DNA of 64,000 bases, taken from IMG/VR virus record IMGVR_UViG_3300005673_000094, positions 1-64,000 of that record. One strand, written 5' to 3'. The notes under the pieces are model-generated. The model made no database searches. It saw only the letters and a list, made by a program, of their open reading frames with translations, and had not been told where the DNA came from. The position numbers were made by a program, and so were the translations under genes. Below are positions 2,517-62,769 of the stretch, piece after piece (positions within the stretch are counted from its first letter, which is position 1; every line of letters starts with the position of its first letter). The stretch is from a virus.

Positions 2517-2828
2517 GGTCGCCTCCCGCCGCGTCGGGCGCACGCGACAGACCGCTATCGGCGGCCATCACGTCGGCGACCCGATCCAGCACGCGCGCCA
2601 TCGGTGCGGCGAGCGGCTCCCAGGCGTCGTCAGCCTGAGGCTCGGCGGGAGGGGATGTGGACAGGCTGTTGACACAGCCCGGTTTCGTGGTATCTGAGGT
2701 GTGCATCGAACTGATCCTTCGATGATGATTCGACCGCCTCGGAGCGCCAACTCCAGGCCATCGCCAAACTCAACCCCGCCCCACACGAAAGGCCTCCAGC
2801 GCAGCCAACGCTGGGGGCCTTCGCCGTT

Positions 2829-3329
2829 TCAGGCCGCCTTGCGGCGGCGCTCGGGCGCGGCAACTTGGAACCAACTCGCACGGATTCGCTCGCCGTTCAC
2901 CTGCTTGGCCTTGGTCTTGTGAGACACGGCCGGGTGCCGCTTGAGCGCACAGAGGAGAACGTTGTCGGACAGCGGCGCGAGCCGCTCGACCTCGCAGTGC
3001 TCCAAATAGAGAGCCATGATGCCACGATCACGGGTCGCTCGGTAAGCCCGGTGCTCGCCGGTTTCGCCGACGCGTTGCAGCCAAGCAACGAACCGATCAG
3101 CCGCGACCTCAGGGTCCAGCGGATCGACGGTCGGCTCCAACAGCCAGTGGCCCATGAGCAAGGTGGCGCCCTTCGGCAGTCGCAGCGCGATCTGCGGCGG
3201 ATTGTCCACGCGCTCGACGGTGTCGGCGATGCGGCGGGCGACGGGCGGGAGCGGGTCGCGGTCCTGCACCGCGGCGCGGCGATAGCCTGGCAGGACGGTG
3301 AGAGCGGCGGTGAGCAGCGCAGAAATCAT
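2829..3329 (-). CDS. Hypothetical protein
   Basis: ORF from MISALL; followed by a stem-loop near 2787-2822. Confidence 0.5.
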   Translation of the reverse strand: MISALLTAALTVLPGYRRAAVQDRDPLPPVARRIADTVERVDNPPQIALRLPKGATLLMGHWLLEPTVDPLDPEVAADRFVAWLQRVGETGEHRAYRATRDRGIMALYLEHCEVERLAPLSDNVLLCALKRHPAVSHKTKAKQVNGERIRASWFQVAAPERRRKAA

Positions 3330-3488
3330 CGGCCCCTCAGGGAGTTGGCGGCTACGCCGCGCGTGCTGGGAGGCCGGAACCCTCAGATCCCCCTGGTTCT
3401 CCGGCCTCCCCGCCGCGCGAATACTGACGCCACTCGTGAGGGGGCAGGATAGCGCGATTCGCCGTCCTGCCACCCTCTCGCCTGAAAC

Positions 3489-59606: not shown

Positions 59607-60656
59607 TCAGCCGGACTTGCGCGCGACAACGGAGGACAGTGCCTCGCTGATGGCGCTGAGGAGCTTCACTGCATCCTCGGGGGCCGCAGCATCCCGCTGC
59701 GGATGATCTCGGCCAGCATCCCGCTGGCCTGCTGTCGACAGTCGTGTGGCGAGCTTCCTGCTGAGACCGATCCCGCGCAGACGAGCTTCCCGCTCGCCCA
59801 GATCGAGGGCATCGAACTCCTCAACGGAAAGAGACTTGCGAGGGCTCTCCATCGAGAGCGAGGCGTAATACCTGTCGAGGTGATCCTGTACGACCTCGAC
59901 CGCCTGCTCTGAGAGATCAACTCCGCCCCGAGCGCCACACAGCGCCGCTGACGCCTTGAACAAAGCCACAGGATTCGCGACGAGTCGAGAGGTTTTCTCA
60001 TCCACGTCGGCGATCAGCAGGCGCGGGTCCCACTGATCGATGCCCTTCTCGTCATCGGCGAACAGGAACGCCTGACGGACCTCGGCGCTGCCGGCGAAGT
60101 GCTTCTTCACGCGCTCCAGCGCGGCCGCCGCGTCCCACGACTTCGCCTCGCGCGCGATCGGGAGATCAGCGAACGGCACGACGCCCTTCACCGTCTCGAC
60201 CGCAGCGAGCGGATTCATCGGCATGTTGACGATGCTGATCTCGTAGAGCCGGATCTGCTTCAGCAGCCGCGCGCCGTCCTCCTTGCGCCGGTCCTTCTCG
60301 GTGGCCTTGTAGCCGATCGAGGTGCCGCGCAGGCCGCGCCGCTTCAACTGCGGCACGATGCGGCCGGCGACGAACGAGTCGTCCTTGGGGAGCTCGGCCT
60401 TGAACCACAGGCCGCGCTTGTCCTCCTTGGCATCGAGGATGGTGCCGATCGGCGCATCCTCCATCTTGTGATTGAACAGCAGGAGCGGCATGCCGTGCTC
60501 GCGCAGCGACTTCGCGAATGCGCCAGGCACGACGACGTCGTTGCCGAGGTCGGTGTTGTTGAAGATCGAGCCGTAGCCCGTGATGGTCCAGCAGTCCTCG
60601 CTCTCCGCGAGCGCCTTCTCCTCGAAGTCCACGAGAGCGCCGTAGTCGCGCAGCAT
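59607..60656 (-). CDS. HK97-family prohead protease with C-terminal extension
   Basis: GYGSIF..D..ND.V.PGAF; LLFNH..PIG; GTSIGY; LYEISIV..P.NP. Confidence 0.95.
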   Translation of the reverse strand: MLRDYGALVDFEEKALAESEDCWTITGYGSIFNNTDLGNDVVVPGAFAKSLREHGMPLLLFNHKMEDAPIGTILDAKEDKRGLWFKAELPKDDSFVAGRIVPQLKRRGLRGTSIGYKATEKDRRKEDGARLLKQIRLYEISIVNMPMNPLAAVETVKGVVPFADLPIAREAKSWDAAAALERVKKHFAGSAEVRQAFLFADDEKGIDQWDPRLLIADVDEKTSRLVANPVALFKASAALCGARGGVDLSEQAVEVVQDHLDRYYASLSMESPRKSLSVEEFDALDLGEREARLRGIGLSRKLATRLSTAGQRDAGRDHPQRDAAAPEDAVKLLSAISEALSSVVARKSG

Positions 60657-60783
60657 GGCAGGTGTTCCTTTCAGTCTCGAATGCGCTCCGCCGGGCGCGG
60701 GTTGTCCCTCGCGAGAGGGGGATCTGACGCGAGAGACACGGGGCGGGCCGCGGGCGGATGCGCGACCTCTGTACGCAATCGGG

Positions 60784-62769
60784 TTACGGGGAGACGCGAC
60801 GCAGGTGCTCGGCGGAGTGCGTCACCGAGCGTCGAATGAGTTCCTCGATGCCAAGCGGCTCGCGCCCGGCGGCGATCTGGACTCGGCGCACGACGCCGGT
60901 CCGGGTGTTGACCTCAGCGCGCGCCACCACGTCACGGCCGATGCTGACCACCAACGTGCCCGGCGTCTCCTGACGCATGCGGGCAATGGTGCGGCCGTCC
61001 CCGAGAACGACTCGGGCGTCCGTGGTGCCGTTGAGCGTGACCGCCTCGGTGGCGCGGATCGGCGTTGGGTTTCCGGGCTTGTCGCCGGCGCGCCACGTCC
61101 GTCGGGCAGGGAGGTGCGGTGTGTTGATCTGGAGCTCGACCCGGCGTCCGTCATTGCCGATGGCCACGTAGTGCGCGCCGCACCTACAATTGTGGGCAAG
61201 CAGCCCGTTGGCGTAGTACCAGCCCTGGTCCGTCTCTATGTTGTAGACATGACCAACGAACCGGCGCCTCTCGACGAGCGCAACATCGTCGAACGATACA
61301 CGGCTGGCGAGTCCGAGAAGGCGCTCGCCATCGCCCTCAAGACCACCCGCGAGCGCGTTCGGCGCATACTGCTGAAGAACGGGGTCGAGCGCCGGGGGCG
61401 CAGCGCGGCGATGTACAATCGCATGTCCCGATCCGACACCGACACCCGCAAGGCACTCGCCCGGAAAGCCAACGAAGCCAGGCGCGGCCAGAAGGCGAGC
61501 CACATCGAGAAGTCCCGAAAGGCCGCCTGGAAGGAAGCGACCAAGATCAAGACGGGAGCGGTCGAAGAAACGCTGGTGTCCATGCTGGAGCATTCTGGCG
61601 TGACGACCAAGCCGCAGGCTGCTGTCGGCCCGTACAACATCGACATCATGTGTGGGCCGGTCGCCGTGGAAGTCCACAGCGGAACGCACTTCCCGCACAG
61701 TCACGAAGCGACCCGAGAGCGCATTGAATACCTGTTCGATGAAGGGCTCAACGTCATCTACGTGATGTGCGTCGTGCAGCGGAAGAACAAAACGCCGCGG
61801 CGCGTCATGCGCCTGCCCAACGGAGCCGCAATGGCCGACCTTGTCGCCTTCATTGAGCGATCCAAGGCCGACCCAGCCTTTCGACGTCAGTATCGGGTGG
61901 TTCGGAGTTCCGGCGAGCTTGTGGCCGAGGCGGGTGGTGATCTCGATCAGATCGCCCGAGTACCAGTGCCGCGTCGCCGCCCTGACGAACCCTGACACTC
62001 GCGTGTCGCCGGGGAAGCAGTTGATCAAGTTCCCCAGCGAAGCGCCGAGCGTCGAGTCGCCTGGGAACATGAGCCGCTCGCCGGAGACCACGAACGGCTG
62101 CGAGACCAGCACCTCCTGATCCTGCGCCGCGACGTGGTCGAAGGCTGACTTCGGGGGATGCCGGACGCGGTCGTCCTTCATCGTCTCCCAGCGCTTGTAG
62201 ATGCGGGCGTTGGCGTGCTTCTGCTTCACCCACCGGAAGATGGCGCCCTCGACTGCCTCTTGGGTCTCGTTGTTGACGATCGCCCGCATGCGCGCCTTGA
62301 CCTTGCGCCACGCCGTCTGCGCCGTCTCTTTGAGCTTGCCCGTCATCCACACCGACCACGGCTGCTTGTCGCTGGCCTTGGTCTCGTAGTGGGCCGCCAC
62401 CGCCTTCTGTGTGAGCCCGACCTGCTCGGAGGCGCGGGCAAGCTCGCGGTCGATCGACTGCATGTACCGCAGCGACTGCCGGTGCGCCCGGGCGGCGAGG
62501 CTCTCGCGGTGCTGAGCGTCGAGCGCGGCGTCGTCGAGCCGGGCGTCGCGCGGCGGGCGGATGCCGCGCACCACGTAGCAGCAGCGCGCGTAGTGCCGCA
62601 TGAGCACCTGCTCGATGGACGTGCGCGCGCTCACCGTCTCCCAGAACGGGACGCGCGACTCCGATCGCACCCACAGCGCGATGTAGGCGGCAAGCGCTTG
62701 GCCGAGCGGGCGAACGAGTTCCTGCTCCAGGGCCAGCTTTGCCTTCAAAACGTCCGAATCGGCCGCCAT
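60784..62769 (-). CDS. Head morphogenesis protein (MuF/SPP1 gp7) containing an intein
   Basis: KRW.T..D.RVR..H..Q..F.V.G..L.FPGD..LIN|intein|CRC. Confidence 0.9.
   Translation of the reverse strand: MAADSDVLKAKLALEQELVRPLGQALAAYIALWVRSESRVPFWETVSARTSIEQVLMRHYARCCYVVRGIRPPRDARLDDAALDAQHRESLAARAHRQSLRYMQSIDRELARASEQVGLTQKAVAAHYETKASDKQPWSVWMTGKLKETAQTAWRKVKARMRAIVNNETQEAVEGAIFRWVKQKHANARIYKRWETMKDDRVRHPPKSAFDHVAAQDQEVLVSQPFVVSGERLMFPGDSTLGASLGNLINCFPGDTRVSGFVRAATRHWYSGDLIEITTRLGHKLAGTPNHPILTSKGWVGLGSLNEGDKVGHCGSVGQAHDAPRRFVLPLHDAHHVDDVEPFIEQVFNALSGRFVTVREVRSAVDFHGDRPTHDVDVVRADSSLRLGRHARMLQHGHQRFFDRSRLDLGRFLPGGLSGLLDVARLLAAPGFVGFPGECLAGVGVGSGHAIVHRRAAPPALDPVLQQYAPNALAGGLEGDGERLLGLASRVSFDDVALVERRRFVGHVYNIETDQGWYYANGLLAHNCRCGAHYVAIGNDGRRVELQINTPHLPARRTWRAGDKPGNPTPIRATEAVTLNGTTDARVVLGDGRTIARMRQETPGTLVVSIGRDVVARAEVNTRTGVVRRVQIAAGREPLGIEELIRRSVTHSAEHLRRVSP
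61189..62019 (-). mobile_element. Intein (277 aa) in MuF
   Basis: Block A CFPGDTRV; block B TPNHPIL; blocks F/G VYNIET..YYANGLLAHN followed by +1 Cys. Confidence 0.92.
61249..61995 (+). CDS. Antisense HTH + PD-(D/E)XK (Vsr/DUF559-like) endonuclease nested inside the intein
   Basis: IVERY.AGES..LA..RVRRIL..GV HTH; E..L..Q..VGPYNIDI..VAVEV..H..R..YL..G..V. Confidence 0.8.
   Translation: MTNEPAPLDERNIVERYTAGESEKALAIALKTTRERVRRILLKNGVERRGRSAAMYNRMSRSDTDTRKALARKANEARRGQKASHIEKSRKAAWKEATKIKTGAVEETLVSMLEHSGVTTKPQAAVGPYNIDIMCGPVAVEVHSGTHFPHSHEATRERIEYLFDEGLNVIYVMCVVQRKNKTPRRVMRLPNGAAMADLVAFIERSKADPAFRRQYRVVRSSGELVAEAGGDLDQIARVPVPRRRPDEP

Follow-up and report, generated by a model that had tools for sequence, protein, structure and literature searches.

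An intein and an opposite-strand gene in a phage head-morphogenesis gene

The DNA analyzed here (the window) is a stretch of 64,000 nucleotides, positions 1 to 64,000 of IMG/VR virus record IMGVR_UViG_3300005673_000094. The source record is 97.7 kb long and was judged complete; the window has a guanine-plus-cytosine (GC) content of 65%. Since the capsid protein is closest to those of Rhizobium, Azospirillum, and Bradyrhizobium phages, the host of the phage is probably an alphaproteobacterium. We studied a MuF-like head-morphogenesis gene on the minus strand that contains an intein, together with an open reading frame (ORF) that lies on the plus strand wholly within the intein. The main features of the locus are as follows.

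60784-62769, minus strand: MuF-like head-morphogenesis gene encoding a 661-amino-acid (661-aa) precursor that includes the intein (ORF and translation).
62020-62769, minus strand: N-extein, 250 aa, ending in ...LIN; its residues 1 to 240 are 93% identical to the intein-free homologue P0189.
61189-62019, minus strand: class 1 intein, 277 aa (C1 ... HN), residues 251 to 527 of the 661-aa protein.
60784-61188, minus strand: C-extein, 134 aa plus the stop codon, starting with CRC, delimited by alignment with intein-free P0189.
61249-61995, plus strand: gene for a 248-aa helix-turn-helix (HTH) and Vsr-like nuclease protein (P0001), a putative homing endonuclease (ORF list, composition, and predicted fold).

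The 661-aa host ORF matched the PHROG category head protein/head morphogenesis (phrog_15127, E value of 2.8e-47), and the Phage_Mu_F domain (PF04233) was present in homologues of the host protein. A reading made earlier from the letters of the window (the sequence-only reading) had described a MuF intein with the intact splicing blocks C1, TPNH, and HN-C, and all of these were found. The codon of Cys1 lies at 62017-62019, the block B motif TPNH occupies intein residues 38 to 41 (T38-P-N-H41), block F reads GHVYNIE, the intein ends with H276-N277, and the codon of the +1 Cys lies at 61186-61188. Both NCBIfam intein models scored above their cut-offs (N-terminal model TIGR01445, 25.9 bits against 24.5; C-terminal model TIGR01443, 16.2 bits against 15.6), and the Pfam model Intein_splicing (PF14890) scored 31.5 bits on the sense frame, just under its gathering score of 35.8. 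Several hallmarks of a class 1 intein were present: Cys1, the block B TxxH motif, the C-terminal His-Asn followed by a Cys nucleophile, a predicted HINT fold, and a homologue without the insert. This homologue, the intein-free allele P0189, has 384 aa, which is exactly 661 minus 277; its alignment with the joined exteins has no gaps (89% identity), and it is continuous across NIVN/CRC (the slash marks the insertion point).

The 248-aa ORF on the opposite strand, which the sequence-only reading had placed at 61249-61995 entirely inside the intein, was present with these coordinates and spans intein residues 10 to 257. Its codons are exact reverse complements of the intein codons, with position 2 facing position 2 and sense codon s lying opposite antisense codon 258-s. 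We refer to the minus-strand frame of the host gene as the sense frame and to the plus frame as the antisense frame.

Selection on the antisense frame in the intein center

The flanking genes and both exteins have a third-position GC content (GC3) of 0.76 to 0.92. Over the intein center (61279-61821), the GC contents at codon positions 1, 2, and 3 of the sense frame were 0.83, 0.46, and 0.61, the inverse of the pattern in every flanking gene. Read in the plus frame, the same region gave 0.61, 0.46, and 0.83, a gene-like pattern.

Substitutions were then compared in two groups of relatives that are independent of each other, six Salmonella Jerseyviruses and three Gordonia phages. In the Jerseyviruses, the variable sites at sense positions 1, 2, and 3 numbered 63, 41, and 189 in the exteins and 90, 20, and 46 in the intein center (chi-square P value of 2e-14). 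The Gordonia phages showed the same codon-position flip (P value of 8e-10). The sequence-only reading had proposed a comparison of nonsynonymous and synonymous substitution rates (dN/dS, or omega) per strand among homologous MuF inteins as a check. The Nei-Gojobori estimates were as follows.

Exteins: sense frame, 0.00 to 0.17; antisense frame, 1.2 to 1.9.
Intein center: sense frame, 0.84 (Jerseyviruses) and 0.68 (Gordonia phages); antisense frame, 0.15 and 0.26, respectively.

In the center, omega was thus 0.15 to 0.26 in the antisense frame and 0.68 to 0.84 in the sense frame. At the splicing ends of the intein in these relatives, the sense frame was again the constrained one. By composition and substitution pattern, selection in the intein center acts on the frame of the plus-strand ORF.

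Both frames stay open over 747 nucleotides, as had been noted from the letters, though in a window of 65% GC the probability of this is about 0.18. Among relatives of low GC content, the antisense gene never uses TTA, CTA, or TCA, the complements of which are stop codons. The probability of finding none of the three, computed from each phage's own extein codon usage, was as follows.

Jerseyvirus LP31: 5e-5.
Idiomarinaceae phage 1N2-2: 3e-6.
Aaphi23: 3e-6.
Vibrio phage 1.113.A: 6e-11.

Among the low-GC relatives, the probability of an open frame ranged from 0.01 down to 6e-11. The sense frame has therefore been actively kept open in these phages, as an intein that is translated through requires.

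The plus frame of the window is free of stops over 449 codons (60646-61995) and continues past the intein, opposite the C-extein and a protease gene. An opening of this length is ordinary for such a register at 65% GC and does not indicate a longer protein.

Predicted fold of the antisense protein

AlphaFold modeled the antisense protein with a confidence score (pLDDT) of 84. Two domains were delimited.

61276-61383, plus strand: HTH DNA-binding domain, residues ~10 to 45 (predicted helices 10-18, 23-29, and 34-43).
61603-61935, plus strand: Vsr-like PD-(D/E)XK nuclease domain, residues 119 to 229 (VIA alignment, profile match against the PDB, and invariant D132 and E141).

The predicted HTH gave VIA Z scores of 5 to 6 with the Mos1, LuxR-type, and IstA HTH domains and a weak match to Pfam HTH_58. 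A basic helical linker was predicted between the HTH and the alpha/beta domain of residues 119 to 229. VIA alignment of the latter domain with E. coli Vsr (1cw0) gave a Z score of 10.0 (root mean square deviation [rmsd] of 3.1 over 112 aligned residues), and alignment with the catalytic domain of I-Bth0305I (3r3p) gave a Z score of 9.6 (rmsd of 3.0, 92 aligned residues, 14% identity). The scores for 1vsr and 3hrl were 9.5 and 8.8; the next unrelated nuclease folds scored about 6, and two rows of one mitoribosome structure scored 8.0 to 8.6. These clear fold scores came from VIA realignment of Foldseek candidates. A profile built from eight homologues matched PDB entry 3hrl, a DUF559-type endonuclease-like protein, with an E value of 1.5e-4, and D132 and E141 fell on its D and E. 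Both residues were invariant in the homologue alignment and in 10 phage copies. They are the counterparts of the metal-binding Asp of Vsr (D51) and of an acidic residue at the position of Vsr F62, residues whose roles have been described (PMC3239194).

The HTH, basic linker, and Vsr/DUF559-like PD-(D/E)XK core that had been read from the letters were thus recovered in the AlphaFold model, in the VIA Z score of 10.0 with Vsr, and in the 3hrl profile match. The profile and structure searches of both frames placed a nuclease fold in the antisense frame and a HINT fold in the sense frame.

Folded and disordered parts of the sense intein

The AlphaFold model of the sense intein was built with a 36-sequence alignment. 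It matched HINT domains, namely, the Mtu RecA mini-intein (Z score of 12.7, rmsd of 1.8, 105 aligned residues) and the Hedgehog autoprocessing domain (Z score of 12.7). The model, together with the omega values of the relatives, divides the intein as follows.

61822-62019, minus strand: HINT N-terminal part, intein residues 1 to 66, with blocks A and B (pLDDT of 93 to 98; sense omega of 0.07 to 0.37 in relatives).
61603-61752, minus strand: HINT middle segment, intein residues 90 to 139, predicted to be folded (pLDDT of 70 to 93; invariant F117-H118-G119).
61303-61602, minus strand: sense filler, intein residues 140 to 239, predicted to be disordered (pLDDT of 30 to 44; in relatives, sense omega of 0.72 to 1.05 and antisense omega of 0.16 to 0.19).
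61189-61302, minus strand: HINT C-terminal part, intein residues 240 to 277, with blocks F and G (pLDDT of 93 to 97; sense omega of 0.07 to 0.17 in relatives).

The pLDDT was below 50 in residues 68 to 88 and 140 to 239. The latter stretch of 100 residues is flanked by the long strands 126-137 and 242-263 and therefore sits at the usual position of an intein endonuclease. On the other strand, it faces the HTH and linker of the antisense protein. In the Pfam and NCBIfam scans, the sense frame matched no LAGLIDADG or HNH model, in agreement with the sequence-only reading. A cryptic endonuclease in the sense center was also considered and was rejected on the lack of domain matches and the pLDDT of 30 to 44 over residues 140 to 239.

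The sequence-only reading had described the whole center of ~190 aa as shadow sequence. This description suits only about 120 of these residues and fails for residues 90 to 139, which have a pLDDT of 70 to 93, carry the invariant FHG, and are predicted to belong to the HINT domain. Residues 90 to 139 lie opposite the nuclease core (antisense residues 119 to 168), and the last strands of the nuclease fold (residues 214 to 229) lie opposite block B. F117-H118-G119 was invariant in all 36 sense sequences. The plus-strand codons opposite it, GTC-GCC-GTG-GAA (Val-Ala-Val-Glu), had fixed synonymous sites in most intein-borne copies, which range from 42 to 68% GC, and differed in the single free-standing copy. 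The plus-frame dS was lower opposite the HINT middle segment than in the filler (0.20 versus 0.51 in the Jerseyviruses and 0.24 versus 0.42 in the Gordonia phages). These patterns are suggestive, though not conclusive, of selection on both frames within intein residues 90 to 139.

Conservation of the layout and intein-free alleles

A tblastn search with P0001 found 128 phage records with 28 to 41% identity: 62 from Salmonella phages, 15 from Gordonia phages, 15 from Pseudomonas phages, and others that include Klebsiella, Escherichia, Vibrio, and Acinetobacter phages, Aaphi23, and an Idiomarinaceae phage. Of 16 records inspected, 15 had the match antisense to a MuF/head-morphogenesis coding sequence, inside an intein and with the codon register unchanged; the other was the free-standing copy of Acinetobacter phage P1068 described below. 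The layout was retained in phages with 42 to 43% GC. The antisense ORF, nonconservation of which would have counted against the sequence-only reading, is thus conserved among homologues. A blastn search (distant mode) of the phage collection with the whole host gene gave no match, and a search among viral contigs for related loci with P0001 confirmed no locus.

Comparison of the window exteins with P0189 gave 25 identities in the 40 residues around the junction and 91 to 93% identity elsewhere. The drop in identity at the junction could reflect a co-conversion tract or divergence of the target site. The low-identity flanks correspond to 61069-61188 and 62020-62049 of the window.

The intein was present in only 58 of the 364 Jerseyvirus-type records; the remainder, about 300 intein-free records, match in two pieces spanning ~1,030 to 1,044 bp. 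Phage SS3e has a precise empty site, HPN/CRS. The intein and the antisense gene were jointly present or jointly absent among the Jerseyviruses.

A related intein with an antisense nuclease gene was also seen at another MuF site, TSTT/CRARDG, in the Escherichia Kagunavirus fEg-Eco06 (L007:1668-2561). This site is ~20 codons upstream of the Jerseyvirus HPN/CRS site, and the 60-nucleotide geometry of the start codon described below is retained.

In Acinetobacter phage P1068, the nuclease homologue is a stand-alone annotated coding sequence without an intein. It is convergent to an uninterrupted 258-aa MuF gene that keeps ...CKCR, and the two genes (L011:1779-2714, plus strand, and 2708-3484, minus strand) overlap slightly, by a few bases, at their ends. 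Many stops interrupt the frame opposite the nuclease gene. The free-standing homologue may be a precursor or a derivative of the intein-borne form.

Other host domains were present in proteins that match the intein region (P0261, P0266, P0209, P0211, P0187, and P0190): a uracil-DNA glycosylase-like domain (PF03167), Phage_min_cap2 (PF06152), and a portal domain (PF04860) fused to MuF. Further host proteins may therefore harbor related inteins.

Start and promoter-like motifs opposite the splicing blocks

Three features near the start of the antisense gene were examined in the window.

61249-61251, plus strand: start codon ATG, the reverse complement of the block F His257 codon (CAT).
61237-61242, plus strand: TATGTT, a candidate -10 box 6 nucleotides before the ATG.
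61161-61190, plus strand: promoter-like TGGCCA-N18-TACAAT, which straddles the boundary between the intein and the C-extein ~59 nucleotides upstream of the ATG.

The start codon was opposite the block F His codon, exactly 60 nucleotides from the low end of the Asn codon, in 14 of the 15 loci examined. Most proteobacterial-phage copies have GAGGT, the complement of the block F Asn-Leu codons, 7 nucleotides upstream of the ATG. Copies of five lineages (Jerseyvirus, Idiomarinaceae phage, Kagunavirus, Aaphi23, and Vibrio phage) have a perfect TATAAT 28 to 54 nucleotides upstream of the ATG, within the complement of blocks F and G, and TGn precedes it in four of them. The set of TATAAT and GAGGT upstream of the antisense ATG was seen at L002:2410-2462, L009:1752-1806, and L008:1778-1815, and the complementary block F and G codons include the rare Ile codon ATA.

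A consensus promoter scan called the TG-bearing sites in the Vibrio phage and Aaphi23 loci and called no site in Jerseyvirus LP31 because the latter has no -35 box. The total number of promoter-like matches in the relatives was not above that in shuffled sequences; only the position of the matches is suggestive.

The window has TATGTT in place of GAGGTT because sense residue 261 is Ile (ATA) and not Leu. The TATGTT from which the sequence-only reading had proposed a leaderless transcript is present, and a leaderless start from it is possible. A rival candidate start signal, also possible, is TGGCCA-N18-TACAAT, for which the consensus scan, as a motif match only, found 1 site against 0.1 expected in shuffles.

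A probable two-strand mobile element

The idea of a dual-coding mobile element, put forward in the sequence-only reading, is supported in its core by composition, frame-specific substitutions, dN/dS, predicted fold, the layout in 128 records, and the intein-free alleles. We consider it likely that the locus is a two-strand mobile element made of a contiguous intein and a separate antisense gene for a Vsr-like homing endonuclease. On the minus strand, the late MuF-like head gene would be translated straight through the 277-aa intein. The HINT domain would be assembled from intein residues 1 to 66, 90 to 139, and 240 to 277, with residues 68 to 88 and 140 to 239 as translated filler. The intein would then use Cys1, Asn277, and the +1 Cys to excise itself, and a 384-aa MuF protein joined as ...LIN-CRC... 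would remain. On the plus strand, the same DNA would encode, codon against codon, a separate 248-aa protein composed of the HTH, the basic helical linker, and the Vsr/EDxHD-type nuclease. Since this gene is on the opposite strand, its product would need a transcript of its own and would be expressed independently of the head gene. During coinfection, the nuclease would cut intein-free MuF genes at or near the sequence coding for LIN/CRC, and repair would copy the intein and the nuclease gene into the empty site.

Several points weigh against this interpretation. All selection tests were made on the loci of relatives and not on the window's own lineage. In the window alone, an open sense frame across the ORF is not improbable (P value of about 0.18 with extein codon usage). 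P0001 had no significant family in Pfam, PHROGs, or NCBIfam, with only subthreshold matches to HTH_58, MTES_1575, and Nif11; the Pfam PD-(D/E)XK and HTH matches were all far under their cut-offs (PF18741 [DUF559/REase_MTES_1575], 13.4 bits against 38.2). Foldseek found no PDB match at an E value of ≤0.001, the E value being only 0.02 and the top rows being 3hrl and 3r3p. The expected general-base His (H69 of Vsr, H213 of I-Bth0305I) has no counterpart in a conserved column: the window copy has H143, H147, and D164, the His columns vary among relatives, and the D164 column is mostly acidic only. Because of this His column, the catalytic competence of the antisense protein is plausible but not proven. 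Finally, the window copy has neither the GAGGT Shine-Dalgarno sequence nor TATAAT, unlike most other proteobacterial-phage copies.

The last two points would also suit a silent or decaying relic, in which case the locus would be a splicing-competent mini-intein with inert filler, inherited vertically after loss of homing. According to a 2025 preprint, some VSR-like cases appear to be vertically inherited (Gosselin, Arsenault, and Gogarten, bioRxiv 10.1101/2025.01.02.630785). However, the ORF in the window is full length and retains every column that is invariant across its closest relatives; it has gene-like GC3, and its product is 48% identical to the homologue P0003 over 95% of its length. 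In addition, the extra divergence from the close intein-free allele is confined to the junction flanks, as expected after recent gain or loss. We therefore regard a relic as unlikely.

It is also conceivable that the antisense protein is expressed and serves some purpose other than the homing of its own intein, as a nuclease in competition between phages, an HTH regulator, or an endonuclease for a neighboring target. The P1068 homologue stands alone beside an uninterrupted short MuF gene, and P0001 belongs to a family of 1,631 representatives (E value of ≤1e-3 in a library of 1.8 billion proteins), many of which are possibly free-standing. Against such a role, the gene was inside a MuF intein in 15 of 16 inspected loci, its start and register are fixed relative to the splicing blocks, and the Jerseyviruses have or lack it together with the intein. 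These associations make a nonhoming role very unlikely.

That the plus-strand ORF is a high-GC artifact and the sense center the functional polypeptide is hardly credible and was rejected: high-GC genomes do yield long antisense ORFs in such a register, the plus frame is open beyond the intein, and P(open) is about 0.18, but codon-position GC, substitution pattern, and dN/dS all favor the plus frame, its protein has a confidently predicted nuclease fold, the ORF is kept at 42 to 43% GC, and the sense center has low pLDDT over residues 140 to 239 and no domain match.

A stronger form of the two-strand interpretation is that the intein and the gene are a single ancient, co-adapted element in which the signals of each strand are built from conserved codons of the other, and that the gene is not a passive passenger. 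We hold this form tentatively and lean slightly away from it. It would account for the ATG opposite the block F His codon, for GAGGT opposite the block F Asn-Leu codons, for the TGnTATAAT-type -10 sequences opposite blocks F and G, and for a nuclease catalytic core read opposite a folded HINT segment whose FHG would itself be selected. If so, ~110 codons would specify two folded domains at once, and the unit would have reached phages of both Actinobacteria and Proteobacteria as well as two or more MuF sites.

The two-strand mobile element would be a clear natural case of long antisense dual coding, with ~750 nucleotides read on both strands and selection detectable on each. The layout also informs how inteins gain endonucleases. 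The best-supported route has a free-standing endonuclease gene invading a mini-intein; in the Acinetobacter phage, a relative stands free beside MuF.

Relationship to known inteins and endonucleases

The sequence-only reading had suspected a prior report in actinobacteriophage capsid genes, and this suspicion was right. The layout is genuine but has already been described: Gosselin et al. reported contiguous actinobacteriophage inteins that carry VSR-like endonuclease genes on the antisense strand, the host proteins including minor capsid proteins. They proposed that free-standing endonuclease genes invade inteins. Their actinophage cases and the window share a contiguous intein, an antisense Vsr-like (probably EDxHD) gene, and hosts that include MuF-type proteins, and the window has each element of their definition of an anti-sense VSR-like HEN intein, i.e., a contiguous intein, an antisense ORF inside it, and a Vsr-like fold. 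The best matches to P0001 in the phage database were the Gordonia phages Fosterous, Vivi2, Angelicage, and Affeca (38 to 41% identity).

Unlike those cases, the window phage is not an actinophage. According to the preprint, the antisense ORFs typically lie outside the splicing domain, whereas the ORF in the window spans intein residues 10 to 257 and its nuclease domain lies opposite block B and the folded HINT segment. Four observations go beyond the text of the preprint as available to us: the occurrence outside actinophages, the fixed start opposite the block F His codon, the embedded upstream motifs, and the overlap of the nuclease core with the HINT segment. Among the papers searched, none besides that of Gosselin et al. 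described the antisense Vsr-like intein layout.

Three other systems are comparable in part. The dnaX intein of cyanobacteria has an antisense or out-of-frame LAGLIDADG gene (Gorbalenya 1998, cited by Gosselin et al., bioRxiv 10.1101/2025.01.02.630785); selection is purifying on the endonuclease frame and relaxed on the intein frame that it overlaps (Phillips et al., bioRxiv 10.64898/2026.09.14.751524). As in the window, the endonuclease and the intein use different reading frames; the endonuclease is LAGLIDADG rather than Vsr-like, and the host gene and organism are different.

In the fractured genes of Dassa et al. 2009 (PMC2677866), a Vsr-like endonuclease gene stands free between the two halves of a split intein; that study and Taylor et al. 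2011 (PMC3239194) defined the Vsr-like endonuclease family. A tie between a Vsr-like endonuclease gene and an intein, mostly in phage-like DNA, is shared with the window. A fractured host gene, however, is broken into two separately translated ORFs that are trans-spliced, whereas the window has a single uninterrupted, read-through ORF of 661 aa.

I-Bth0305I is the prototype EDxHD homing endonuclease (PMC3239194; PDB 3r3p). It resembles the antisense protein in having a Vsr-like catalytic domain after N-terminal DNA-binding modules and counterparts of D132 and E141. It differs in that its gene lies on the sense strand of a group I intron, and its His general base is not clearly conserved in the family of the window protein.

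Annotation of the locus

The practical result for the window is modest: the MuF gene is to be annotated as intein containing, and a second gene is to be added on the opposite strand. The antisense gene is mostly unannotated in relatives, the plus-strand ORF being called in only 2 of the 16 inspected phage records. Salmonella phage PK2 (L006:1905-2714, plus strand) is among the few records that annotate it, as a "hypothetical protein." In several Jerseyvirus records, the MuF protein with the intein is labeled "NAD+--asparagine ADP-ribosyltransferase."

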